From positions 9,718 to 73,717 of the forward strand of contig CALRGX010000002.1 of assembly GCA_943358385.1 (NCBI GenBank): DNA of 64,000 nt, in the 5' to 3' direction. A program made the translations under genes and the position numbers. The stretch comes from Parcubacteria group bacterium. GTDB taxonomy: Bacteria; Patescibacteriota; Minisyncoccia; Phycocordibacterales; UBA2100. The notes beneath the pieces are model-generated. The model searched no databases. It was not told the origin of the DNA and saw nothing but the letters and a program-made list of their open reading frames with translations. This document shows, in pieces, positions 9,054 to 56,019 of the stretch; positions within the stretch are counted from its first letter, which is position 1, and each line of letters begins with the position of its first letter.

Positions 9054-10337
9054 TTACCTACAGTTCGCCCACAAACCGCGCGCCGAAAGGCGCGCGGTTT
9101 CTTCAAGGCTTCTAAACGACGTTTGGAAATTGTATGCACGATTTTTATAGGTGTATTCGCGTGCAGCACCTTCCTTCACCAAAACTTCGTTCACGTGAGT
9201 CTTTCCAATGTACACATACGCCAAGAGCCGCCCGTAGGTATCGCGCGTATCTTGCGTCGGGTCAGTCATGAGCATGAGCGCAGAGCCGTTTGGCAGCACT
9301 GCGCGCAATGCTTCTGTTGCCTCAGGTGCGAAGCATTCTGGTTTTGTATCTTTCCCTGCGTTCGTTTCAGGTGCGTCGATACCAAGAAGTCGCACCTTTT
9401 CCTCGCCTCCATTCTCTAGACGCACGCGTATGGTGTCCCCGTCCGTTACCCCAAGAAGAACCGCCCCAGTGGGGCGGGCGTTTACTTCGTGCACGGGATC
9501 AAGAAGGAATGGCGAGTCGGTAGTTTTGAATGCGGTCCCGGTATCTGGCACTATCTCTGGCGCCGATGCTTCGAAAAAGGTCAGACCAAACATCATCACT
9601 ACGCCAATAATGACCGCAAGGAACTGTATGAGCGAATCCCGCACACGAGCATGCCTGTGCAGCTCGGGCACTAAATCCGCTGCGGCAATGTAAATGAAAG
9701 AACCAGCAGCAAGTGCCGAAAGTGCAGGAATCATTGCCTCGCTGTATGACCCAATAAGGAACACCAGCCCTGCACCCAGAAACGCCGAGAGGGCCGAGGC
9801 GACGTTTGCAATGAGGGCTCGCGTGCGCGAAAACCCTGCGTGCAAGAGCACACCAAAGTCACCTATTTCTTGGGGTAGTTCGTGAAGCGCCACTGCAATC
9901 GTGGTTGCCACACCAGCTTCTGTTGAAACGAGAAATGCTGCCGCGATAATGACGCCATCAACCACATTGTGCAGAATGTCGGCGAATATAATGAGAAAGC
10001 CAAACGGACGCACGTGGTCGTCGCAGTCATCGCAGGCATCTTCGGTCTCTTGGTGTGGCTCGTGGTGATGATGCCAGTGTAGGAACTTTTCCAAAATGAA
10101 GAAGATACCCATACCTAACAGAACCCACAGCGCCGTACTGTCGCCCAAGGTTTCGGATGCTTCCGGAATGAGATGAATGAATGCGTCACCCAACAGTGCT
10201 CCGACCGCAATGCCCACAAACACCAGCATGAGACCGTGCAGATTTTTTGAACGGGCTGGGTAGAACAGGGCGGCGAGCGCTGAAATTGCGCTGATACCGG
10301 CAATGGCCGCTAGAGTGAGTAATACCGGGGAGTCCAC
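9054..10337 (-). CDS. fusion protein: N-terminal ZIP-family (ZupT-like) divalent metal transporter and C-terminal staphylococcal (thermo)nuclease domain
   Basis: ZIP signatures HNVVDGV and HELPQEIGDFGVLL with His-rich loops HWHHHHEPH. C-terminal VTDGDTIRVRL...LLGIDAPET...YGRLLAYVY...VNEVLVKEGAA matches the SNase/TNase fold. Confidence 0.75.
   Translation of the reverse strand: MDSPVLLTLAAIAGISAISALAALFYPARSKNLHGLMLVFVGIAVGALLGDAFIHLIPEASETLGDSTALWVLLGMGIFFILEKFLHWHHHHEPHQETEDACDDCDDHVRPFGFLIIFADILHNVVDGVIIAAAFLVSTEAGVATTIAVALHELPQEIGDFGVLLHAGFSRTRALIANVASALSAFLGAGLVFLIGSYSEAMIPALSALAAGSFIYIAAADLVPELHRHARVRDSLIQFLAVIIGVVMMFGLTFFEASAPEIVPDTGTAFKTTDSPFLLDPVHEVNARPTGAVLLGVTDGDTIRVRLENGGEEKVRLLGIDAPETNAGKDTKPECFAPEATEALRAVLPNGSALMLMTDPTQDTRDTYGRLLAYVYIGKTHVNEVLVKEGAAREYTYKNRAYNFQTSFRSLEETARLSARGLWANCR
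9073..9104 (+). terminator. hairpin terminator for the plus-strand gene. It lies inside the 3' coding end of the convergent ZIP-SNase gene.
   Basis: aaaccgcgcgcc-gaaa-ggcgcgcggttt followed by cttc. Confidence 0.5.
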
Positions 10338-10451
10338 CCGTGCAGCATGCTACCTCTCTCTTCATTGTGCAAGGTGTAAGAGATGCATAATGGCGCCGTC
10401 TTATAGAATGCTAGACTACTAGTACTTATTTATTACACGTTTACATAGATT

Positions 10452-11270
10452 ATGGACACGCAAAAACAAGAGATTCACATTGTTCCGCCAACGATTATGG
10501 TAAAAGCAGCAGCAGCGGCACTCGTGGCACTTGCACTCTGGGGCGCGGCGGAGTTCTTAACCACGCTTAAAGAGTTCCGTTTTGTCGGCTCTGGGACTAC
10601 GGCGACCAACACCATCACCGTCTCAGGTGAAGGGGAAGTATTTGCGGTCCCTGACCTCGCCACATTCTCAGTGAGTGTGGAAGAGAAAGCGAAAGAGGTA
10701 AAAGATGCACAAAAAGTTGCCACTGAAAAGTCTAACGCTATCCTTGCTGCACTACGCGCAAAAGGTATTGCCGACAAAGACATCAAGACTACCGCATACA
10801 ATGTCTACCCCAACTACCAGTGGCTCCAAGAACCATGCACCTCGCGTGGCTACTGCCCACCAGGGGAGCAGAAGCTCGACGGCTACACTGTTTCGCAATC
10901 AATCGAGGTAAAGGTGCGTGACACTGACGCAGCAGGAGAAATTCTGGCGAGCGTCGGCTCTTTGGGTGCGAGCAACGTGAGCGGTCTTTCATTCACGATA
11001 GATGATGAAGACAAGCTGCAAGCTGATGCGCGCGCTGAGGCAATTGCTGATGCCGAGACCAAGGCAGAAGAATTGGCCGATCAACTAGGGGTAAAGATTG
11101 TCCGCATCGTTGGTTTCTCTGAAAACGGAGGAGGCTACACGCCGCCAATGTACTTGAAGCGCGAAGCCATGGCCATGGACTCAGCCGCTGCAAATGCTCC
11201 AGCGCCCGAGTTGCCTATGGGGGAAAACAAAATTGCTTCCAGTGTCTCGATTACGTACGAGATTCAGTAG
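10452..11270 (+). CDS. SIMPL/DUF541-family periplasmic protein (26-kDa periplasmic immunogenic protein family)
   Basis: N-terminal TM anchor and overall pattern (GYTVSQSIEVKVRD...ITYEI), recognised from family memory. Confidence 0.6.
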   Translation: MDTQKQEIHIVPPTIMVKAAAAALVALALWGAAEFLTTLKEFRFVGSGTTATNTITVSGEGEVFAVPDLATFSVSVEEKAKEVKDAQKVATEKSNAILAALRAKGIADKDIKTTAYNVYPNYQWLQEPCTSRGYCPPGEQKLDGYTVSQSIEVKVRDTDAAGEILASVGSLGASNVSGLSFTIDDEDKLQADARAEAIADAETKAEELADQLGVKIVRIVGFSENGGGYTPPMYLKREAMAMDSAAANAPAPELPMGENKIASSVSITYEIQ

Positions 11271-11290
11271 TGTTTCTTGACCTAACTGTG

Positions 11291-11321
11291 GAAAGCGGCT
11301 CAGACAGAGCCGCTTTCTGTT
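11291..11321 (+). terminator. terminator hairpin
   Basis: gaaagcggctc-agacag-agccgctttc followed by tgtt. Confidence 0.5.
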
Positions 11322-11344
11322 ATCATGTGCGCACCTGTGCATAT

Positions 11345-11638
11345 ATGGCTACACCACTCTCACTGGGAAAGACCCTACAGCCCGTGCTCCTTTTGAGTGA
11401 CGAAACGCGCGCATACCTGCTTATCTTGCTCGCGAAGCACAAGAAAGGTCTCTGTGTGCAAGATTTGGCGCTGAAAGTTGGCGTCAGCCACTCTGCTATG
11501 TGCCATCAGCTTGCCAAGCTCGAGCGGCTAAAGATAGTTGCGGGCACCCGTAAGGGGCAAAGTGTGATATACGCACTCACCAAAAATCCGACGGTAAAGC
11601 ACATGACGAGCATTCTCAAAGTAGTGCGCGCGCTATGA
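11345..11638 (+). CDS. ArsR/SmtB-family transcriptional regulator
   Basis: HTH LSDETRAYLLILLA...LCVQDLALKVGVSHSAMCHQLAKLERLKIV. The track ORF starting at 11270 runs through the upstream terminator, so the start is placed at the internal Met. Confidence 0.7.
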   Translation: MATPLSLGKTLQPVLLLSDETRAYLLILLAKHKKGLCVQDLALKVGVSHSAMCHQLAKLERLKIVAGTRKGQSVIYALTKNPTVKHMTSILKVVRAL

Positions 11639-12267
11639 AAGCACAACGCATCATCCAAAAGATGAAGACCTTTGCGCAAAAAATGCCGCGTGCGTATCAG
11701 GTAGCGGCATTCATAGTGGTGCTCGGTATAAGTGTGCTGGCGATGATGCCACACGCGGCGCCTCATCGTGCACAAGATATTAGCCGTGTCGCCTTGGTTA
11801 CTCGTACAGGGGAGACCGTGGAATTACATGCCGTGATTGGAGGGCGTCCTGCAGTCATCAATGCGTGGGCGTCATGGTGTCCATTTTGCACCCAAGAGCT
11901 GCCTGATTTGGTGGCACTCCAAAAAGAATTTGGAGACGCCGTGGTGGTCATTGGAGTAAATCGTAACGAAGATCAAAACGATGCAGAAGCATACCTGCGC
12001 TCGATTGGTGCCGAGGAGGGTCTGGTGTACCTGTATGACCCTTTTGATTTCTTGTATCAAACTATCGGTGGGTATGTGATGCCTGAGACGATATTTGTTT
12101 CCCCTGACGGACATGTGGTGACCCATGTTCGCGGGCCCTTGTCGCCAGAAGAGATGAGACGCCACACACAGCTTCTCATTCTGGGAAAGGAATTGCCGCC
12201 TATGAAAGAGGAACCATCTGGTCCGGGGGTTGTGGGCTGCCGCGATGGAGGGCAGTGCTTTTTTTGA
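11635..12267 (+). CDS. TlpA/ResA-like thiol-disulfide oxidoreductase (thioredoxin fold, membrane-anchored)
   Basis: WASWCPFC CxxC motif and N-terminal TM anchor. The ATGA overlap with the ArsR gene suggests an operon. Confidence 0.75.
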   Translation: MKAQRIIQKMKTFAQKMPRAYQVAAFIVVLGISVLAMMPHAAPHRAQDISRVALVTRTGETVELHAVIGGRPAVINAWASWCPFCTQELPDLVALQKEFGDAVVVIGVNRNEDQNDAEAYLRSIGAEEGLVYLYDPFDFLYQTIGGYVMPETIFVSPDGHVVTHVRGPLSPEEMRRHTQLLILGKELPPMKEEPSGPGVVGCRDGGQCFF

Positions 12268-13745: not shown

Positions 13746-13902
13746 CATCGCCCCGCACGCGCTCAATCTGCCGCGCGTTCTCGGGAAATGATGTGTCGGC
13801 ATAGTCAAAAAGTTGAATCAAAACAACAAGACCTCGCGGCTCGCGGGGTCTTGTTGTTTGTGGCATGCTGGAGTTTGGCTTTCTTTGGCAAGGAGATGCA
13901 CC

Positions 13903-14736
13903 GTGAAGCAGTACCTCGACCTGCTCCGACACATCCGTGAAAAAGGCGTGCAAAAAGGAGACAGAACCGGCGTCGGCACCATCAGCGTGTTTGGCTACCA
14001 GATGCGTTTCGATTTGGCCGCAGGGTTTCCGATACTCACCACCAAGCGCGTGTTTTTGAAAGGTATCATTCACGAACTCCTGTGGTTCCTGAAAGGAGAC
14101 ACTAACATCGGGTACCTCAAAGCGAATGGTGTTTCGATTTGGGACGAGTGGGCCACCGCAGAAGGTGACCTTGGTCCCGTGTACGGCAAACAGTGGCGCG
14201 CGTGGGCAACCTCTGATGGTCGCACCGTGGATCAGATCGCTGAGGTGATTGCACACATTAAGGCAAAGCCGAATTCGCGCAGGCTCATCGTTACGGCGTG
14301 GAATCCGGCAGATATGCCAAACGAGGCACTCGCACCTGAAGTGAATGCGGCACAAGGGAAGATGGCGCTCGCCACCTGCCACTGCCTCTTTCAGTTCCAC
14401 GTGGCTCATGGAAAACTCAGCTGCCAGCTCTACCAGCGCTCGGCAGACGTATTCCTGGGTGTCCCGTTCAATATAGCCAGCTACGCACTCCTCACGATGA
14501 TGATTGCACAGGTGTGCGATTTGGAACTGGGCGAGTTCATTTGGACTGGTGGGGATACGCACCTGTATCTGAATCATCTCGATCAGGTCGACCTGCAGCT
14601 GTCACGTGAACCGCTTGCGCTGCCACAGATGCGCGTCAATCCCACCGTGAAAGACATTGATGCTTTTCGCTTCGACGACTTCACCTTGGAGAAATACGAC
14701 CCGCATCCGGCGATTAAGGCGCAGATTGCGAAGTGA
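13903..14736 (+). CDS. thyA: thymidylate synthase ThyA (canonical, folate-dependent)
   Basis: GTG start after an AAGGAG RBS. Catalytic region [51 protein letters not shown] is near-identical to the E. coli ThyA active site. Confidence 0.9.
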
Positions 14737-14739
14737 AAC

Positions 14740-14777
14740 ATGCAGGCAAGTCGAAGACTTGCCTGCATCCTGTTTTT
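14740..14777 (+). terminator. strong rho-independent terminator after thyA
   Basis: atgcaggcaagtc-gaa-gacttgcctgcat followed by cctgttttt. Confidence 0.75.
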
Positions 14778-14793
14778 AGGAAAAAATTTTCAT

Positions 14794-15747
14794 ATGGAAC
14801 TACCAGCGTACCTAAAAACACTGTACCGACACTGGCCTCATCATCAGGATACTTCTGCTGCAATGCTGCGCGCGGAGAACGTTTGCGCAGATGAGGTCCT
14901 GTGGCGCAACATGGAATACTTCATTGAGGAGCGCATGCGCGTATGGGAGAAGAAAACGTTGGGTGGCGAACCCCCATACACGGAGGATCCCATCCTAGCG
15001 ATGTATCGCTTCTGCAACATCTTTCGAGAATTTGATCGACAAACCATTGAATTTCATACGATACTGAATCCACTGCGTGACGATTTCCCACTGTGGCTTT
15101 TGAATATGTTTTACCTGCGCATGGTTGCGCGCACAGAGACTGCGCGTGGTGTGGGTCTACTGTCTTTTAGTGAAAGCGATAACAAACATTTTTACGAGCG
15201 GCTGATGGCCTCGGCGAGACCGCGTTACGGTACGCCGTATGTATTCCCCGTGAGCGTCATACTCAAAAGCCGCACACCAACGCGCGAAAAGTTTATTGCA
15301 CACTATCTACCGTCAGTCATGAACAGTATTGCTCAAGAAGTGGCAACATGGGACCGTCTATCGGTGTACGAAGGTGTGCACCGCATACTTCCGCTTTTCG
15401 GTTTCAATCTGAAATTTCTGTGGACTGAAGTGTTGATCGATGTGGCGTATCAATATCCAGCACGCGTCGACCTCTTCGGTCGCTTTCCTGTGGGGCCAGG
15501 TTCGTTGCCGACTATGAAGCGCGTTGACTCGCACATGGATCCAACCTGTCTCGTTGCCATGCTGGCGCAAGTACCATTCCAGACAGGGCTAACATACGAA
15601 CGCACGCCCTTGCTTCTATCTGCTGAAAACTGGGAAGGCATTGGGTGCGAGTTCAGAAAATACACCAATCTATCGCAAGGAAAAGGAAGGAAAAGAAAAT
15701 TCATGCGAGAAGCGGCCGGACCTTTTGGTCCGGCCGCACGGTGTTAG
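14794..15747 (+). CDS. uncharacterised 318-aa protein inside the thymidylate gene island
   Basis: ORF starting after the thyA terminator (MELPAYLKTLYRHWPHH...YRFCNIFREFDRQTIEFHT...). Its stop overlaps the stop of convergent folA by 4 nt. No P-loop, HAD, PRT or ThyX motifs recognised. Confidence 0.55.
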   Translation: MELPAYLKTLYRHWPHHQDTSAAMLRAENVCADEVLWRNMEYFIEERMRVWEKKTLGGEPPYTEDPILAMYRFCNIFREFDRQTIEFHTILNPLRDDFPLWLLNMFYLRMVARTETARGVGLLSFSESDNKHFYERLMASARPRYGTPYVFPVSVILKSRTPTREKFIAHYLPSVMNSIAQEVATWDRLSVYEGVHRILPLFGFNLKFLWTEVLIDVAYQYPARVDLFGRFPVGPGSLPTMKRVDSHMDPTCLVAMLAQVPFQTGLTYERTPLLLSAENWEGIGCEFRKYTNLSQGKGRKRKFMREAAGPFGPAARC

Positions 15748-16239
15748 AGAACATTTCGTTGCCACACTTCAAATTGTGCCGGGTGTGTATCACCGGCGCA
15801 TTGCATAATCTGAGCGCGGTGCTCGCGGTGCCATTCTTCCATGGTGATGGTTGGAAAGTAGGTATCACCCTGTGTTTCAGCAAACACTCGCGTCACGTAG
15901 AGACGTTCGATAGATTGGTGAGCTAGGAACCACCGATAGATTGTTTCTCCTCCGGCGATGATCAGTTCGGTATCTCGCCTCGGCACGCGCAGTGCATCCT
16001 CAGGAGATTGCACAAACGTGACGTCAGCGAGCTGTGCCCTCGCAGTTTTGCTCACCACGATGATGTGCCTACCCACCAAAGGGTGAGGAAGCGATTCGTA
16101 CGTGCGTCTGCCCATAACGAGGGATTTTCCCATGGTGTATTGCCTGAAGCGTTTCAAATCGCTTGGAATGCGCCACGGTAAGGCATTTTTGCTTCCAATG
16201 ACGCGAGAATCGGTCATGGCAACGATAATGCTGAGCATG
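15744..16239 (-). CDS. folA: dihydrofolate reductase
   Basis: AGGAGG RBS. MLSIIVAMTDSRVIGSKNALPWRIPSDLKRFRQYTMGKSLVMGRRTYESL is the DHFR signature. Confidence 0.85.
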
Positions 16240-16292
16240 TGTTTCCTCCTGTTTCTGGGGCCACTGTACGCATCTTGATACAGGAGGGCAAG

Positions 16293-16332
16293 CCCACACA
16301 CCTTAGGCCGCATAGCGGCTAAGGTGTGTGGG
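16293..16332. promoter_or_regulatory. 40-bp near-perfect palindrome in the folA / dCMP-deaminase divergent intergenic region; candidate operator
   Basis: cccacacacctta-ggccgcatagcggc-taaggtgtgtggg: the 13-bp arms are exact reverse complements and the centre is a nested palindrome. Confidence 0.4.
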
Positions 16333-16415
16333 TAAATACAATCTTTTTGACCTTGTTTGAAGGGATGTACCTCGTGCATGCTATTGAGAGCCGTTCCTTA
16401 CCAAGGAGTAATCAC

Positions 16416-17021
16416 ATGTCCAAAAGCAGCAAGCCACTCTCATGGGTCAAAGGTACCGATGCGTCGGTACTTAAACGCATGTTTCCCGACAAGCTTAAAA
16501 AGAACTTTGCTCGGCCAACCATGCTCGACGTCATAGCACAGCAAGCAATAGTTGTATCCAAACGCTCAACATGCCTCTGGTATGAGGTGGGTGCAATTAT
16601 TTTCCACGGCGATATCATTTTGTCGTTGGGCTACAACGGTGCCGCGCGCGGCGATGTTGATCCGCGCCACGCAGGGTGTGCCCGAGTGGTTGGTGGCAAA
16701 TTGCAAGAAGGGCAGGGGCTCTGTCGTGGTTCTCACGCGGAACTCAATGCTATCGGCAACCTTTCAGCAGGAACACAGGGTCTGCAGAATCTGCACATGA
16801 TGGTGACGTTGCATCCGTGCAATACGTGTGCAAAACAGATAGTGAACAAAGGCATCACCTTTGTGCACTACCTGTGGGAGTACGGGCGTGAAGAACATGC
16901 AACCGACTACCTGCGCCGTCTCGGCGTGCGTGTAGAAAAGTATGGGAGCCCGTTCCTCGACGCATGGATTGATCTGAACGACTACCATCCCATCGGCGAC
17001 CGACAATCGCGGCACAGCTAA
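16416..17021 (+). CDS. deoxycytidylate (dCMP) deaminase
   Basis: AAGGAG RBS. Zinc-binding HAELNAI and PCNTC motifs of the cytidine/dCMP deaminase fold. Confidence 0.85.
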   Translation: MSKSSKPLSWVKGTDASVLKRMFPDKLKKNFARPTMLDVIAQQAIVVSKRSTCLWYEVGAIIFHGDIILSLGYNGAARGDVDPRHAGCARVVGGKLQEGQGLCRGSHAELNAIGNLSAGTQGLQNLHMMVTLHPCNTCAKQIVNKGITFVHYLWEYGREEHATDYLRRLGVRVEKYGSPFLDAWIDLNDYHPIGDRQSRHS

Positions 17022-17493: not shown

Positions 17494-18171
17494 CTATACT
17501 TGTTGAAACGATAGCTCCTCGAACAAAAGCCCTTCCTTCTTTTCAGAAAGTGCGACGCGTAAAACGTCCTGTACACCAGGCATACAATTCTCTGCTGTAA
17601 TCGCTTTTTTAGATAACCACTGTACTTTCTCCAAAGTAGGGGAGGATTCTTTTATGGGCGTTACATTGCTGCCGTAGAACACATGGCAGAGCATGTGCAC
17701 GATGATTTCATCGTGTGCGTCGGTGACAAGTACGTACACAAGGCCTTTCTGAATGAGCGTGGCGCGAAATCCTGTTTTTTCCTGAAGCTCTCTTTCCGCT
17801 GATGCTTGTACGCTCTCGCCCAAGTGCGTTTTTCCATACGGGAAGCCTATTTGCCCCAAAAATGGCTGTTTGCCGCGAGTGTACAAAAGAAATTCGCGCT
17901 GGTTATTTTCGCACACGGTGAGTGTCACTATTTTTGGCTGTGCTCGCACAAAGAAATGTTCAAAATTCACTCCCGTCGTAAAATGCACACCTTTGGTGGT
18001 TAAGGTGTACTGCCCGCTACTCTGCTTGATGTACCCGTGGCGTACCAACGTTTTCAAATGGTAGCTGAACTGGTTGCCTTCAATACGGGCGGGCTTTAAG
18101 TCGCTGTAGCGTAAGCGCTTGCTGCGGCTGAGAGCTTTCAACACTTGTTTTTGAATCAGATGCATCTCCAT
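17494..18171 (-). CDS. winged-helix DNA-binding domain fused to a C-terminal Nudix hydrolase domain; putative ligand-responsive regulator
   Basis: N-terminal wHTH-like LKALSRSKRLRYSDLKPARIEGNQFSYHLKTLVRHGYIK. Nudix box GKTHLGESVQASAERELQEKTGF fits GX5EX7REUXEEXGU except that the second Glu of the EE pair is Lys. Confidence 0.65.
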   Translation of the reverse strand: MEMHLIQKQVLKALSRSKRLRYSDLKPARIEGNQFSYHLKTLVRHGYIKQSSGQYTLTTKGVHFTTGVNFEHFFVRAQPKIVTLTVCENNQREFLLYTRGKQPFLGQIGFPYGKTHLGESVQASAERELQEKTGFRATLIQKGLVYVLVTDAHDEIIVHMLCHVFYGSNVTPIKESSPTLEKVQWLSKKAITAENCMPGVQDVLRVALSEKKEGLLFEELSFQQV

Positions 18172-18966: not shown

Positions 18967-20634
18967 ATGGATACAGAACTACTACTTGAGGCCTTGACTC
19001 TTGCTGCGGTGAAAGCCGGTATTCCCACACCCAGGGTGGTTTTTGATTTTCCGTCGGAATTGAGCCATGGGGACCTCACCACCAACCTCGCTTTGGTGCA
19101 TGCCAAAGAAGTAGGCGATGCACCACGCTCACTTGCAGAAAAAGTAGTCGCCAAGCTCCCCGCAATTCCTGGTATTGAGCTGGTGAATATTGCTGGCCCC
19201 GGGTTCATCAATTTCACCTACACAAAAGACGTACTGACAGCAGTTGTTCACGAGGCGCACACAAAAGGCGAGCAATGGGGTGAAGGCGAAGAGCTGCAGG
19301 GCGCGACCATAATGGTGGAGCACAGCCAGCCAAATCCTTTCAAGCCATTTCACATCGGGCACTTGATGAGTAACACCATTGGCGAATCGCTCGTGCGCCT
19401 CCTGGAAAACCAGCAAGCACGTGTCATACGCGCCAACTACCAAGGCGATGTGGGGCTCCATATCGCCAAAGCAATTTGGGGTATGCAGAAACTCGGCACG
19501 GATCCAAAGGATGTGGAAGCCATCGGTAAGGCATATGCGCACGGTGCACAGTTGTACGAAAAGGACGACACCGTGAAAGGCGAGATTGATGCACTGAATA
19601 TGAAGGTGTATGAGAAAACTGACGGTGTCGTCAACGAACTGTACGACCTGGGTCGCGAAGCCAGCCTGAAGCGCTTCGACGAACTCTACTCTGTGCTCGG
19701 TTCATCATTTGACCGTTTCTATTTCGAAAGCGAAACCGCAGGTATCGGACAAAAAGTAGTCGAGGCGCACCCGGACATCTTTCCGCTCTCAGAAGGGGCA
19801 CGAGTGTTCAAAGGAGAAGAGTACGGGTTGCATACCCGCGTGTTTCTTACTTCCAAAGGACTGCCCACCTACGAAGCAAAAGAGCTGGGACTAGAGACTT
19901 TGAAATCACAGGAATATCCCGAATGCGACGAATTCATCATCACTACTGCTGTGGAGCAAAAAGGCGTCTTCCTCATTATCAAGAAAGCACTTGAAATAAT
20001 TAACCCGGCACTCGGTGCGAAGCTTTCGCACATAAGCCACGGCATGATGCTTTTGCCGACGGGTAAAATGTCGTCGCGCACCGGGGAGGTGGTAACGGGT
20101 GAATCGCTTTTGATTGCATTGGTAGACAAAGCACGCGAGCGCGCCAAAGAAAGCCGCGCTGAAGATGCGGATTTGTTGGCGCAGCAAGTGGCGGTAGCAG
20201 CAATTAAATTTCAAATCTTAAAGCAAGCTGCAGGGAAGGATGCCGTATTTGAAGAAGAACGTGCGCTCTCGCTCGACGGGGACTCGGGACCGTACTTGCA
20301 GTATGCCCATGCGCGGTGTGTTTCCATTTTTGAAAAAGCAAAAGAAGCGGGGATTAAGTCGAAGGCAGATGCCGCTCTTGTTCCTGGGGAAATCACTCGC
20401 CTCCTGGTTCGTTTCCCGCAAGTGGCGCAGCGTTCTGCCGAAGAGCGCGCGGCACACCACATCGCCACCTACCTGATTCAGCTCGCAGGCGAATTTAATT
20501 CCTGGTATGCGCGCGAGCAATTTCTTGATGGCACGGATGCGGCTCCGGCGCGTATCGCGCTCGTCGAGGCAGTGCAGCACACACTCAAAAATGGTCTCGC
20601 GCTCCTGGGTATCCAAGCGCCAGACAAGATGTAG
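18967..20634 (+). CDS. argS: arginyl-tRNA synthetase
   Basis: Class I HIGH-region FHIGHLMS, KMSSRTGEVV, and the overall ArgRS architecture. Confidence 0.95.
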   Translation: MDTELLLEALTLAAVKAGIPTPRVVFDFPSELSHGDLTTNLALVHAKEVGDAPRSLAEKVVAKLPAIPGIELVNIAGPGFINFTYTKDVLTAVVHEAHTKGEQWGEGEELQGATIMVEHSQPNPFKPFHIGHLMSNTIGESLVRLLENQQARVIRANYQGDVGLHIAKAIWGMQKLGTDPKDVEAIGKAYAHGAQLYEKDDTVKGEIDALNMKVYEKTDGVVNELYDLGREASLKRFDELYSVLGSSFDRFYFESETAGIGQKVVEAHPDIFPLSEGARVFKGEEYGLHTRVFLTSKGLPTYEAKELGLETLKSQEYPECDEFIITTAVEQKGVFLIIKKALEIINPALGAKLSHISHGMMLLPTGKMSSRTGEVVTGESLLIALVDKARERAKESRAEDADLLAQQVAVAAIKFQILKQAAGKDAVFEEERALSLDGDSGPYLQYAHARCVSIFEKAKEAGIKSKADAALVPGEITRLLVRFPQVAQRSAEERAAHHIATYLIQLAGEFNSWYAREQFLDGTDAAPARIALVEAVQHTLKNGLALLGIQAPDKM

Positions 20635-51582: not shown

Positions 51583-52455
51583 CGCCACACCTTATGAGTA
51601 CTAACAAAAGCCCGAAGTAGAGCGGTTGGACCGGTCGAAAGGCCTTTCCAGAAGCCGCGTTGAAGCGGCCTTTTTAGTGCAAGGAGTAAGGGAGAACGTT
51701 GACACACAAGGATTCATTTATTGGAGATGAATTCTTTCATATACGAAATTAAAACAACATGCAGAAATGCGTGTTGATGAATCAATCAATTGCAGGCTTC
51801 ATACCGCTACGGTGGTATGAATAAAAAATGTATGACGAACATACTGAACATATGTTCGTTCGAGATCTGTACCAACGCGAAGGCGGAGGTATAGAAATCA
51901 ATCACAATGCGGTTCTTAGAATTTCTAACAGGAGATTCTAATAAGGGCGTATGGTGGATGCCTTGACTGAAGAGAGCGATGAAGGACGTGGTCTGGCTGC
52001 GAAATGCATCGGGGAGCTGCCAAACAAGCTTCGATCCGGTGATGTCCGAATGGGGAAACCCTATTGAGTAACCCTCAATAACTTTGCACTAGCAAAGAGC
52101 ATACCTCGGGAAGTGAAACATCTCAGTACCGAGAGGAAAAGAAAACAATTGTTATTCCCTTAGTAGCGGCGAGCGAAACGGGAGGAGCCCAAACTTAATT
52201 GAGATCAAGGGGAGCATTTCCATGTTCCTCCTGATCTCGGTTAGGGGTTGTAAGGCGTTAGCGCTGTGTTTACACAGGAAGAGTTACAAAGTTTTTGGTT
52301 AGCAGAATCATCTGGAAAGATGAGCCCCAGCGGGTAATAGCCCCGTATGCGAAAATCAAAAGCCTCTTTGGCTAATGTCCTTGAGTAACTCAAGACACGA
52401 ATAGCTTGAGTGAATCTACCGGAACTAACCGGTAAGGCTACATATCTCTTCAGAT

Positions 52456-52498
<43 letters not shown>

Positions 52499-53928
52499 GG
52501 TGAGGGGAGTGAAATAGACCTGAAACCATATGTCTACAAGGAGTCGAAGAGGGCGTAAGTCCTCGACGGCGTGCCTATTGAAGAATGAGCCAACGAGTTG
52601 ATGCATTCGGCTTGCCTAAGAGGTGAACCCTCGGAGGCGTAGTGAAAGCGAGCGTGAATAGCGCGTTTGTCGTTTGTATCAGACCCGAAGCCAGGTGAGC
52701 TACCCATGAGCAGGCTGAACGCTATCGAAAGATAGCGGGAGGGCCGAACCGGTGAGTAATGCAACGCTCTCGGATGACTTGTGGGTTGGAGTGAAAAGCT
52801 TATCGAACTTGGTAATAGCTGGTTCTCTCCGAAACAGCTTTTGGGTTGGCGTCGCGTGTTCCTTGTGGGGGTAGAGCACTGGAAGGATTAAACAGGGCTT
52901 CGGCTCATTAATCCTATCAAACTCCGAATACCACAAATTAATAGCGCGGCAGTTAGTCCGTGGGGGCTAAGCTCCACAGGACAAAAGGGAAACAGCCCTA
53001 GATCGCCAGTTAAGGTCCCTAAATTAACGCTCAGTGTAAGCAAGGAGGTGAAGTTTCTTTGACAGTGAGGATGTTGGCTTAGAAGCAGCCACCATTTAAA
53101 GAAAGCGTAACAGCTCACTCACTCAGAGACTTTGCGCCGAAGATGATCGGGACTCAAGCGTTATACCGAAACTGCGGGTTCGCATATTTTTAATATGTGA
53201 GCGGTAGGAGAGCGTTCCATTCCGCGATGAAGGCAAAGGGGTGACCCATGCTGGAGCGTGTGGAAGTGAAAATGTTGGCACGAGTAACCGCAATGCGGGT
53301 GAGATTCCCGCACGCCGAAAGACCAAGGTTTCCTTCGCAATGGAGATCAGCGAAGGGTTAGCCGGGCCTAAGCCGATGGCGAAAGCCGAAGGTGATGGAC
53401 ACAGGGTTAATATTCCCTGGCTCGGACGTGGTGCGATGAGATGACGGAGGGTAGTAGTGTGCGCCCCTTATTGGTTTGGGGTCATTGCTCTGAGGGTGCT
53501 GGCGAGGTAAATCCCGTCCGCATAGCCCAAGGAGAGATGAGAACTGTGCTTCGGCACAGGAATGCACATGAGCACGCTTTCAAGAAAAGTCTCTAAGCAT
53601 AACCACGTACGATCCGTACCAGAAACCGACACAGGTGGTCAGGTCGAGTAGACCAAGGCGAACAAGTGAGTGCTCCTTAAGGAACTCGGCAAAAAAGCGG
53701 CCGTAACTTCGGGATATGGCCTGCCCCTCGCAAGAGGGGCCGCAGCGAAAGATTCCCTGACAACTGTTTACCAAAAACACAGCTCCCTGCGAACTCGTAA
53801 GAGGATGTATAGGGGGTGACACCTGACCAATGCCGGAAGGTCAAGTATGGGGGGTGCATGGATTTATCCATGTGCTGGACTATATAAGCCCCGGTCAATG
53901 TCGGCGATAACTATAATCGTCCTAAGGT

Positions 53929-54195
53929 TCCGCATTTCTCGCAAGAGGAATGCGGAAGGACTGGGACGATTATGGAGAAAAGGGTAAACAGAAATATCTA
54001 CACTAAAAAAGCTACCTTGTGCCCGCGCAGCAATGCGTCACGCACTTGTCCAAAACATGACTATATGATGATGGGTCCGAAACCGATCATCAGGCAATCC
54101 TCAGCGCAAGCGAATGGAGGCCATAGAGACTATACGCCATGTACCTTTTGCGAAAGCAGAAGGTAAAGAAATAGTCCAACGTAAAGGAATAGTTG
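53929..54195 (+). mobile_element. ORF-less group I intron in the 23S rRNA (helix 69-71 region, near E. coli position 1931)
   Basis: The 23S exon sequence cctaaggT / AGCGtAATTCCTTGTCGGG is interrupted by about 267 nt. The insert has GACTA...TAGTC P7-like pairing (agagactatacg ... aatagtcc) and ends in G. The upstream exon ends in U. Confidence 0.55.
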
Positions 54196-54858
54196 AGCGT
54201 AATTCCTTGTCGGGTAAATTCCGACGTGCACGAATGGTGTAATGATTGGGGAACTGTCTCAAGGAGCAGCTTGGTGAAAATACAGTACCGGTGAAGATGC
54301 CGGTTACCTGCAGCTAGACGAAAAGACCCCAGAAGCTTTACTGCAGCTTCATATTGGGGATACGAAAATACTGCGTAGCATAGGTGGGAGAGGTTGAAGT
54401 GATCCTTTAGGGGGTCATGGACTCGTCAGTGAAATACCACTCTTTATTTTTGTATCTTCTAACCTGGGTAGCAAAAATGCACAGGAACAGTATGTGGCAG
54501 GTAGTTTAAGTGGGGCGCTTTCCTCCTAAAAAGTAACGGAGGAGCTTATTAAGGTCACCTAGGCGCGGATGGAAACCGTGCCGATAGTGTAATGGCAAAA
54601 GGTGGCTTGACTGCGAGACGTAGGTGTCAAGCAGGTGCGAAAGCAGAACATAGTGAACCGACCTTCCGCGTTAGATGCGGGGGGAGATTAACCGATAAAA
54701 GTTACTCTGGGGATAACAGGCTAGTTCCGCCTAAGAGTCCAAATCGACGGCGGAGTTCGGCACCTCGATGTCGGCTCACCTTATCCCGGGGCTGGAGAAG
54801 GTCCCAAGGGTTTGGCTGTTCGCCAATTAAAAAGGTACGCGAGCTGGGTTCAGACCGT

Positions 54859-55164
54859 TCAGGATGCGAGAGCTAAGGCACGCAAGTGCACGCTCACATT
54901 CGTGTCCTGAACACGTCTGAACTCCGAGGAATACTTAGTTAGACAATTCACGGCGGCTCTCTATAGAAATACAGAGATGCATGTCTGACATATTTCGGTA
55001 GACGCAACCACGACCTAACCTGGCGTGGGTAAAGCAATACCGAGGGAATCTTGAGCGAAAGCGATAGAGCCCGTAGAGACTACACGTCAGATACCTGAAT
55101 CCTGAGCGTAAGCGAAGGAAAGGTAAAGATATAGTCCAGTACATAACACAATCAGTATGTATAG
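54859..55164 (+). mobile_element. ORF-less group I intron in the 23S rRNA (GGGUUUAGAACGU / CGUGAGACAG region, the I-CreI-site neighbourhood)
   Basis: The exon gggttcagaccgT / CGTGAGACAGGTTGGTC is interrupted by about 306 nt containing gtagagactacacg ... atatagtcc (P7-like). It ends in G. The upstream exon ends in U. Confidence 0.55.
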
Positions 55165-55567
55165 CGTGAGACAGGTTGGTCTTAATCTGCTGCAGGCGTT
55201 GATTTTTGAAGAGTTTCGTCCCTAGTACGAGAGGACCGGGATGAACTGACCTCTGGTCTGTGAGCTGTCGCTACCCGCGGCATTGCTCAGTAGCTATGTC
55301 GGGAACGGATAAACGCTGAAAGCATATAAGCGTGAAACCGCCTCTAAGATAAGAAATCATTTGAGACCCGTGAGAGATGATCACGTTGATAGGCACTAGG
55401 TGGAAGTGCAGTAATGCATTGAGCCGAGGTGTACTAATTCGTCGAAGAAACTCCTGTTAGAACTTCTGAGAACCAATCCGACACATACTATGTGTATAGG
55501 ATAGTCATTGTGAAATACAACTTGTAATTGATTGATAAAAGATTCGTGAACTGTAGTGAGTGCTTAC

Positions 55568-55642
55568 GCCCCTGTAGCTCAAGTAGAGCACCCAGGCTTT
55601 GTCTTGGGGAGGCTGCTGGTACAAATCCAGCCAGGGGTACCA
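55568..55642 (+). other. tRNA-like structure with an encoded CCA in the 23S-5S spacer. It is a degenerate tRNA: D-loop without GG, T-loop TACAAAT, imperfect anticodon stem, central TTT.
   Basis: Acceptor GCCCCTG/CAGGGGT plus ACCA, D-arm GCTC-AAGTA-GAGC, T-arm GCTGG-TACAAAT-CCAGC. The anticodon arm pairs only 4/5 with loop GCTTTGT. Confidence 0.4.
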
Positions 55643-55910: not shown

Positions 55911-56019
55911 TGTTGGTGCTTTGTCGGAGGGGGTCCACCCGTTCTCATTCCGAACACGGCAGTTAAGCCTTCCTGAGGCAATGGTAGTCCGCAAGGGCGA
56001 GAGTAGCTCGGCGCCAACA
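55911..56019 (+). rRNA. rrf: 5S ribosomal RNA
   Basis: ccgaacacggcagttaagcc...atggtagt...gagagtagc conserved 5S motifs. Confidence 0.85.

Follow-up and report, generated by a model that had tools for sequence, protein, structure and literature searches.

A ZIP metal transporter joined to a staphylococcal-type nuclease domain in one clade of Parcubacteria: a probable surface nuclease with a rare anchor

Introduction

Why does a metal importer carry a nuclease at its C-terminus, and what would such a protein do for the cell? The question is raised by a gene in a 64,000-nucleotide stretch of DNA from a Parcubacteria group bacterium (contig CALRGX010000002.1; hereafter the window, meaning the whole stretch analysed). 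This gene, here called ZIP-SNase, encodes a ZIP-family transporter followed by a domain of the staphylococcal nuclease (SNase) type. An earlier note, made from the sequence alone, had described the fusion, placed the nuclease outside the membrane in a cell that scavenges DNA or nucleotides, and proposed that the transporter might supply the nuclease with metal. SNase enzymes cleave DNA and RNA in a Ca2+-dependent manner to 3'-phosphorylated products. ZIPs carry transition metals inward, into the cytoplasm, and Ca2+ is not a typical substrate of theirs. Genome-reduced, host-dependent bacteria such as Mollicutes and the candidate phyla radiation (CPR)/Patescibacteria are believed to obtain nucleic-acid precursors largely with nucleases that they secrete or display on the surface, the case for the CPR being almost wholly one of prediction.

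In this study, we analysed the gene, its relatives and its locus by computation. The fusion is genuine, not an assembly or frameshift artefact, and both of its domains are kept by purifying selection, the ZIP half being the more constrained. The protein is probably bifunctional: a ZIP that imports metal and at the same time holds on the cell surface a nuclease with which nucleic acids are scavenged. The fusion probably arose once and was then inherited vertically.

Results

In the open reading frame (ORF) list, ZIP-SNase has 427 codons, with a GTG start at 10337, a stop at 9054-9056 and no internal stop (Table 1). Pfam recovered both domains in this one frame, namely PF02535 Zip over about residues 6-255 (166.8 bits against a cutoff of 35.1; E 9.3e-49) and PF00565 SNase over residues 314-425 (74 bits against a cutoff of 21; E 1.6e-20), the latter covering positions 1-107 of the 107 in the profile. 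The earlier claim that a single frame joins a complete ZIP to a complete SNase was thus borne out. A frameshift, a chimeric assembly or a mis-joined contig could also merge two genes in this manner. However, the identical 427-residue protein occurs on 14 contigs of independent ENA, NCBI and Logan assemblies, and both Pfam domains lie in one frame in 15 protein clusters (clustering at 90% identity). These orthologues, at 92-51% identity, stay in frame across a linker of variable length, and the GC content, also that at third codon positions (GC3), is uniform along the gene. The probability of an artefact is therefore negligible. An internal start at M248/M249, which would give a separate nuclease, was rejected, since too little of the hydrophobic stretch would be left to act as a signal sequence. 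An AlphaFold2 (AF2) model of the whole protein, built on 86 sequences, had a mean predicted local distance difference test score (pLDDT) of 88.

Table 1. Positions in the window of ZIP-SNase, its parts and its divergent neighbours
Feature	Position	Strand	Basis or remark
Whole ZIP-linker-SNase coding sequence	9054..10337	-	ORF list; Pfam; identical protein on 14 contigs; start matches orthologue N-termini
ZIP metal-transporter domain, residues 1-257, eight predicted transmembrane (TM) helices	9567..10337	-	Pfam; BbZIP; hydropathy; AF2; loop charge; dN/dS
His/Asp/Cys-rich loop TM3-TM4, predicted cytoplasmic, residues 87-111, HWHHHHEPHQETEDACDDCDDHVRP	10005..10079	-	translation; conservation
TM4 metal-site motif HNVVDG, residues 123-128	9954..9971	-	aligns with BbZIP H177/N178/E181
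TM5 metal-site motif HELPQEIGDFG, residues 152-162	9852..9884	-	aligns with BbZIP Q207/D208/E211
Linker, predicted flexible and extracytoplasmic, residues 258-289, SAPEIVPDTGTAFKTTDSPFLLDPVHEVNARP	9471..9566	-	translation; AF2; conservation; dN/dS
SNase (thermonuclease, OB-fold) domain, residues 290-427	9057..9470	-	translation; Pfam; nuclease A alignment; Foldseek; AF2
DGDT motif, residues 299-302; D301 = Asp21, Ca2+ ligand	9432..9443	-	invariant in the 15 fusions and in 120 free-standing SNases
RLLGIDAPE, residues 316-324; R316 = Arg35, D321 = Asp40, A322 = Thr41, E324 = Glu43	9366..9392	-	R316, D321 and E324 invariant
YGR, residues 368-370; Y368 = Tyr85, R370 = Arg87	9228..9236	-	invariant
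Cys335, first half of predicted disulfide	9333..9335	-	invariant in fusions
Cys426, second half of predicted disulfide	9060..9062	-	invariant in fusions
Divergent intergenic region between ZIP-SNase and the SIMPL-family gene	10338..10451	.	presumed promoter and ribosome-binding site, inferred only
SIMPL/DUF541 protein with N-terminal TM helix	10452-11270	+	divergent neighbour of ZIP-SNase
ArsR/HTH_5-family regulator	11270-11638	+	
Membrane-anchored TlpA/redoxin-like thiol-disulfide oxidoreductase	11635-12267	+	

The nuclease half has the full set of Ca2+ ligands and catalytic residues of an SNase. Residues 290-427 form a beta-barrel with helices in the AF2 model at a pLDDT of ~97. The sequence matched S. 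aureus nuclease A at E ~1e-14 with ~31% identity, and Foldseek superimposed the model on nuclease A structures (1stn/1snc) with a target-normalised TM-score of 0.85-0.88 and a root-mean-square deviation of 2.0-2.7 Å, typically ~2.3 Å. In terms of the established SNase mechanism, in which Ca2+ is bound at Asp21 and Asp40, D301 and D321 correspond to these two ligands and A322 to the backbone ligand Thr41, while R316 and R370 take the places of the catalytic Arg35 and Arg87, E324 that of the general base Glu43, and Y368, Y395 and Y397 those of the active-site residues Tyr85, Tyr113 and Tyr115. All of these mapped residues are invariant in the 15 fusions, and D301, R316, E324 and R370 are so in 120 free-standing relatives as well. 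The active site is thus intact, as the earlier note had supposed, and no catalytic Arg, Glu or Asp has been lost. The scores for two named SNase equivalogs were below cutoff (NucI, NF047694, 63.1 bits against 250; EcnA, NF047969, 68.6 bits against 180). The closest relatives of this half are free-standing proteins of 130-280 residues from Patescibacteria, Actinomycetota and Chloroflexota, at 43-54% identity (P0121-P0240).

The transporter half is equally complete. Hydropathy gave eight hydrophobic segments, and the AF2 model had eight long helices over residues 4-257 with a pLDDT of ~90+; the TM helices span approximately residues 5-25, 35-56, 66-86, 112-136, 141-166, 173-196, 202-224 and 234-255. 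The half matched BbZIP (PDB 5tsa) at E 8e-11, with H123/N124/D127 aligned to H177/N178/E181 and H152/E153/Q156 to Q207/D208/E211. In the 15 family members H123, N124, D127 and G128 of the TM4 motif are invariant, and so are H152, E153, P155, Q156, E157, G159, D160 and G162 of the TM5 motif. The TM3-TM4 loop has a low pLDDT in the model and carries the string HWHHHHEPH at residues 87-95; H87-H92, H95, C102, D104 and H108 are invariant across the family, with a mean of 8.1 His per sequence in this loop. Both metal-site motifs and the His-rich loop named in the earlier note are therefore present, as HNVVDG, HELPQEIGDFG and HWHHHHEPH. Its label "ZupT-type" had to be dropped: the protein scored 67.3 bits with the NCBIfam ZupT equivalog NF003243, for which the cutoff is 252, and 14.5 bits with TIGR00820, for which it is 231. 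The TM5 motif HELPQEIGDF we take to be of the LIV-1-like form HExPxExGD, unlike the version in BbZIP or ZupT. ZIP-only proteins of ~255 residues from Kaiserbacteria, Paceibacterota and Parcubacteria are 60-65% identical to this half. Judged from these features, it most likely still imports divalent transition metals.

In order to compare the constraint on the two halves, we used the ratio of nonsynonymous to synonymous substitution rates (dN/dS; NG86 values). Between the window and a 92% identical orthologue (P0002), dN/dS was 0.025 in the ZIP half, 0.29 in the linker and 0.13 in the SNase half. Between two further members, P0003 and P0004, dS was saturated in the ZIP half, and dN/dS was 0.47 in the linker and 0.12 in the SNase half. 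Overall, values ranged from 0.12 to 0.17 for SNase and from 0.29 to 0.48 for the linker, and identity within the family was 58-98% for ZIP and 49-86% for SNase. Synonymous divergence between P0003 (locus L091) and P0004 (locus L089) was uneven along the gene, the proportion of synonymous differences being 0.74 (saturated) in the ZIP half versus 0.41 in linker plus SNase; this may be a sign that the lineages have recombined within the gene or that the gene is a mosaic of them.

The constraint bears on another reading, in which the ZIP half has degenerated, no longer transports and serves as a membrane anchor only. Nothing specific speaks for it apart from the general possibility that tail-bearing ZIPs are specialised paralogues. 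The ZIP half, however, is better conserved than the rest of the protein, and the strength of this constraint argues against degeneration. Moreover, neither the metal-site residues nor the His-rich loop vary among the members, the half remains close to the ZIP-only proteins (60-65% identity), and the gene occupies the same syntenic slot as the ZIP-only orthologues, so that it is probably the resident ZIP of the lineage. A degenerate ZIP is thus very unlikely.

The linker between the two domains is acidic and rich in Pro, Thr, Ala and Glu, with a pLDDT below 50 for residues 261-286. Among relatives it is 21-39 residues long and 3-34% identical, with a net negative charge in every member. To judge by the model, it would behave as a flexible tether. 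At the boundary of linker and SNase, at 9461-9477 (both strands; codons ~287-292), lies a perfect 7-bp all-GC hairpin, CCGCCCC-ACT-GGGGCGG, of terminator-like form, followed on the coding strand by a T-rich run. It sits exactly where an ancestral ZIP would end and the SNase begin, and could be either chance or a relic of the join.

A linker of this kind might instead serve for export, with TM8 acting as an internal signal-anchor and a protease cutting the linker to release a soluble nuclease. It is exposed and disordered, with much Pro, Thr and Ala, as regions open to proteases typically are, and among the SNase-type nucleases of Mycoplasma some are found both at the membrane and in secreted form (PMC12115388). 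However, a conserved AXA-type or other cleavage motif was absent past TM8 in the 15 members, where the residues after the invariant E256 vary freely, and most of the free-standing relatives have a lipobox or TM anchor that keeps them on the cell. We regard release as quite unlikely and a tethered nuclease as the better reading.

On which side of the membrane would the nuclease be held? Across the family, loops 1-2, 3-4, 5-6 and 7-8 contain on average 6.7 Lys plus Arg and so, by the positive-inside rule, would be cytoplasmic; the value is 0.1 for loops 2-3, 4-5 and 6-7 together with the N-terminus and the 15 residues that follow TM8. In the cryo-electron microscopy structure of BbZIP, the C-termini are periplasmic (PMC10256678). 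Equivalents of Cys335 and Cys426 occurred together in 116 of the 120 free-standing homologues, were both missing in 4 and never stood alone; such strict co-occurrence is the signature of a structural disulfide, as expected in an exported protein. Finally, 99 of these 120 homologues have hydrophobic N-termini of the signal or anchor type, 32 of them with a lipobox-like Cys. These four independent lines agree in predicting a ZIP half with both termini outside and a nuclease outside the cytoplasmic membrane, in keeping with the placement proposed in the earlier note.

The locus tells how the fusion may have come about. The gene order L11-NusG-SecE-(redoxin)-SIMPL, divergent from ZIP-SNase, and then (GFA, YfbR-like HD) and RRM, is conserved. 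Arginyl-tRNA synthetase (ArgRS; 18967-20634 in the window) has its named relatives in Candidatus Kaiserbacteria, the Parcubacteria group and Minisyncoccia, which places the host among the CPR/Patescibacteria. On contigs equal in length to those of the fusions P0004, P0007, P0014 and P0012, and assumed to be the same ones, ArgRS is 88, 63, 62 and 62% identical to that of the window, and the fusions themselves are 76, 60, 51 and 57% identical in the same order. ArgRS and fusions diverge in step, which points to vertical inheritance in a single clade. A ZIP-only gene of ~50% identity occupies the same slot beside SIMPL-NusG-L11 in four further genomes of Patescibacteria (L010, L011, L028, L035). 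A scan of genome contigs with the full protein was dominated by the ZIP motif PQEIGDFG; all 80 loci kept from it were ZIP-only, and none had an SNase gene within 6 kb. In the simplest history, the ZIP at this locus is ancestral and the SNase module was appended once to its 3' end, in one sub-lineage. Two other origins were rejected: a fusion of neighbouring genes, given the 80 loci free of SNase, and a recent horizontal gain of the SNase half, given the uniform GC and GC3, the conserved synteny and the parallel divergence of ArgRS.

The fusion is also rare. In an exhaustive HMMER scan of 1.84 billion representatives at 50% identity, the family collapsed to a single one, P0003, and no other protein with ZIP followed by SNase was present among the best 150 matches, which covered total scores down to ~160 bits; P0322, among these 150, is a tandem SNase without ZIP. 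Literature searches found no earlier description of a ZIP-SNase fusion. The earlier note had called the fusion partner unusual, and these results agree. The fusion, most simply explained as a rare way to anchor a well-known enzyme, is confined to one narrow clade of the ultra-small Parcubacteria. The ZIP subfamily to which it belongs (42-53% identity to the window protein; L005-L084) is common to many Patescibacteria lineages and to DPANN archaea, among them Woesearchaeota, Pacearchaeota, Nanoarchaeota, Aenigmatarchaeota and Micrarchaeota, which suggests inter-domain transfer among ultra-small symbionts.

Other ZIPs carry other tails. P0256, from the same ZIP subfamily, has a C-terminal NAGPA (phosphodiester glycosidase) domain, and P0017 (locus L071), P0026 and P0246 have a conserved tail of ~160 residues without a Pfam match. 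The P0017 tail gave only chance-level matches to haemagglutinin among PDB sequences (E 0.017 or worse), and an AF2 model of P0017 from the single sequence had a pLDDT of 41. Further tails occur in P0262, P0268, P0285, P0316 and P0373, some of them His-rich (P0316, P0373, P0285). With the SNase family left out, tails of at least 60 residues were present in 10 of 248 ZIPs, in a biased sample. The outward C-terminus of ZIPs thus appears, by prediction, to be a permissive and recurrent attachment point for exo-domains in CPR/DPANN-type organisms. The unrelated tails on one ZIP subfamily argue for a generic anchoring role, and the free-standing SNases with simple signals or anchors imply that the nuclease does not need a ZIP.

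For these reasons the proposal of the earlier note that the ZIP supplies metal to the nuclease was unsupported. SNase uses Ca2+, whereas ZIPs import transition metals and so move metal away from an external enzyme, which leaves such a supply without a mechanistic basis; the closest SNases manage with plain signal, lipobox or TM anchors, and sister ZIPs bear NAGPA and other tails without evident metal logic. A wider form of coupling, in which the two activities depend on each other, could take several shapes: digestion of DNA, a polyanion that binds divalent cations, might free Zn, Fe or Mn at the mouth of the ZIP, the ZIP might clear inhibitory transition metals from the surroundings of the Ca2+-dependent nuclease, or a ZIP dimer might pair two nucleases. 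In its favour, the fusion has been kept across a clade with ArgRS down to ~62% identity, with both halves under purifying selection. BbZIP forms a dimer through a TM3/7/8 interface and has a negatively charged, cation-concentrating periplasmic cavity (PMC10256678), so that two tails would emerge close together, and the His-rich tails on sister ZIPs could bind metal. Against it, ZIP-only orthologues stand at the same locus in sister genomes, the 80 other ZIP loci have no SNase nearby and so give no sign of a wider association, and the length, disorder and lack of conservation of the linker are not those expected of a precise functional interface. On balance, coupling is unlikely. The boldest form makes ZIP and nuclease one functional unit: the nuclease would strip cation-bearing DNA above the vestibule of the ZIP dimer, one protein would harvest nucleotides or phosphate together with Zn, Fe or Mn, and ZIP C-termini would be a recurrent docking platform for feeding exo-enzymes in CPR/DPANN. 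To this we give only a small chance.

The surroundings of the gene contain a number of further features. In the window and the orthologous loci, the neighbours of ZIP-SNase include GFA, SIMPL, an ArsR-like regulator, a redoxin and SecE, and no ABC genes were seen; SIMPL adjoins the fusion in all orthologous loci and the ArsR-like gene in the closest ones only. The extracytoplasmic redoxin lies near an exo-enzyme with a predicted disulfide, a proximity that could be meaningful or incidental. Upstream of the ZIP-SNase start, two conserved blocks, CCTTGCACAA and GGCATGCT, were aligned in three of four orthologous loci, and in the 114-bp upstream region neither a sigma-70 consensus nor a Zur-like or other palindromic operator was found. 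On the other side of the gene, a 217-residue ORF (7836-8489, minus strand) has no Pfam match and an HExxH-like motif, AHELAHV, and may encode a metallopeptidase, to judge by this motif; in the P0004 and P0008 loci this place is taken by a YfbR-like HD-domain 5'-deoxynucleotidase gene.

Farther away, a 335-residue ORF (14740-15747, plus strand) matches PF18723 HMUDK_hel, the helical domain of 5-hydroxymethyldeoxyuridine (5-hmdU) DNA kinase, at E 1.8e-14. It lies between ThyA (13813-14736) and DHFR (15744-16379, minus strand), which are followed by dCMP deaminase (16326-17021) and NUDIX (17494-18171). A homologue of a phage-type thymidine-hypermodification kinase in a CPR chromosome could mean modified DNA, which would be relevant to a cell that displays a nuclease. 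The 23S rRNA gene (51929-55458, plus strand) has 3530 nt against 2925 nt in the Rfam model and thus ~600 nt of insertion(s). Features at 55568-55639 and 55912-56019, both on the plus strand, indicate a tRNA between the 23S and 5S genes, and there is no 16S gene in the window.

Discussion

Our results suggested a bifunctional protein whose halves are both maintained. From the features described above, we infer the following course of events in the Kaiserbacteria-like Parcubacterium. Residues 1-257 would form an eight-helix ZIP, its two ends on the outside, that imports divalent transition metals. TM8 would leave the membrane into a disordered, acidic linker of ~30 residues, and this would hold a disulfide-stabilised, Ca2+-dependent endo/exonuclease of the SNase type on the outer face of the cytoplasmic membrane, in the zone of the cell envelope. 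The nuclease would cut extracellular or host DNA and RNA to small 3'-phosphorylated products beside the uptake systems of the cell, and these products would feed the salvage of nucleotides, nucleobases or phosphate in an organism of presumably minimal biosynthesis. The ZIP would thereby take the place of the signal peptide, lipobox or single-helix anchor found in the free-standing relatives of the nuclease. In evolutionary terms, the SNase module would have been added once to the 3' end of a ZIP gene resident beside SecE-NusG-L11 and then passed on vertically.

A scavenging role of this kind, already put forward in the earlier note, is plausible in a CPR host. Secreted SNc nucleases occur in 15 of 28 Patescibacteria metagenome-assembled genomes, with a hypothesised role in nucleobase salvage (PMC11495043). 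Likewise, the membrane TNASE_3 nucleases of Mycoplasma, which have been studied by experiment, serve to acquire nucleotide precursors, and some are co-expressed with ABC transporters (PMC12115388).

Several points weigh against this reading. Neither a 3'-nucleotidase nor a nucleoside or nucleotide transporter gene is adjacent, although SNase products are 3'-phosphorylated, so the salvage route downstream is unseen. ThyA, DHFR, dCMP deaminase and NUDIX lie at a distance of 3.5-7 kb, and their presence may be due to a conserved housekeeping neighbourhood and not to a functional link. The topology depends on prediction and on homology to BbZIP. Finally, pure anchoring leaves it unexplained why a polytopic transporter has been retained for so long over a simple anchor.

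Taken together, ZIP-SNase is a compact, single-polypeptide candidate for an active surface nuclease in Parcubacteria, with both halves under selection. It also suggests that polytopic transporters whose C-terminus faces outward can take over from a signal peptide or lipid anchor, and that this has happened several times in the ZIP subfamily, with different exo-domains. This may be useful for the annotation of "ZIP family" proteins that are ~160 residues too long, and such ZIPs are possibly a natural scaffold for surface display. Were the coupling true, it would be a new mode of acquiring metal and nutrients together; as it stands, the fusion is a narrow evolutionary variant.

Comparison with known systems

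The nuclease half has the same fold as S. aureus nuclease A (Nuc), with a TM-score of 0.86, and the same active-site set (D21/R35/D40/E43/R87/Y85/Y113/Y115). Nuc, however, is soluble, secreted and without cysteines, whereas the present domain carries two conserved Cys and is, by prediction, membrane-tethered. With the free-standing SNc or "micrococcal nuclease" proteins it shares the catalytic residues, the Cys pair and, by prediction, the extracytoplasmic location. These proteins have an N-terminal signal peptide, a lipobox or a single TM helix, in contrast to the fusion, which is without an N-terminal signal and hangs off the C-terminus of a polytopic protein. As for the transporter half, BbZIP (PDB 5tsa, 8ght) belongs to the same family, its TM4 and TM5 metal-site motifs align, and its C-terminus faces outward as predicted here; it differs by an additional helix at the N-terminus and by the lack of a C-terminal domain. 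The tail-bearing ZIPs (P0256; P0017/P0026/P0246) have, by prediction, the same layout of an eight-helix ZIP, a short linker and a folded extracytoplasmic domain, but their tail domains are unrelated to SNase.

The nearest functional parallel is found in the SNase-type nucleases of Mycoplasma, Mhp379, MG_186, Mpn133 and MGA_0676 (PMC12115388), whose SNase domain has the conserved Ca2+-ligand Asp and the catalytic Arg/Glu/Arg, as here. They sit on the outside of the cell membrane of a genome-reduced bacterium that needs external nucleic-acid precursors, and they are associated with a transporter; in these respects the likeness of ZIP-SNase is a predicted one. The anchored SNc nucleases of Gram-positive-type bacteria are a further parallel in function. 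The Mycoplasma enzymes, however, are lipoproteins or have a single anchor, whereas the nuclease here lacks a lipobox and is covalently fused to an eight-helix ZIP. The transporter with which they are associated is a distinct ABC system for nucleotide precursors encoded in the same operon, in contrast to the present locus with no adjacent ABC genes, and the Mycoplasma lineage is unrelated to Parcubacteria. Collectively, the enzyme, its predicted location and its probable purpose are of a known type, and what is new here is an unusual anchor that is itself probably a working transporter.

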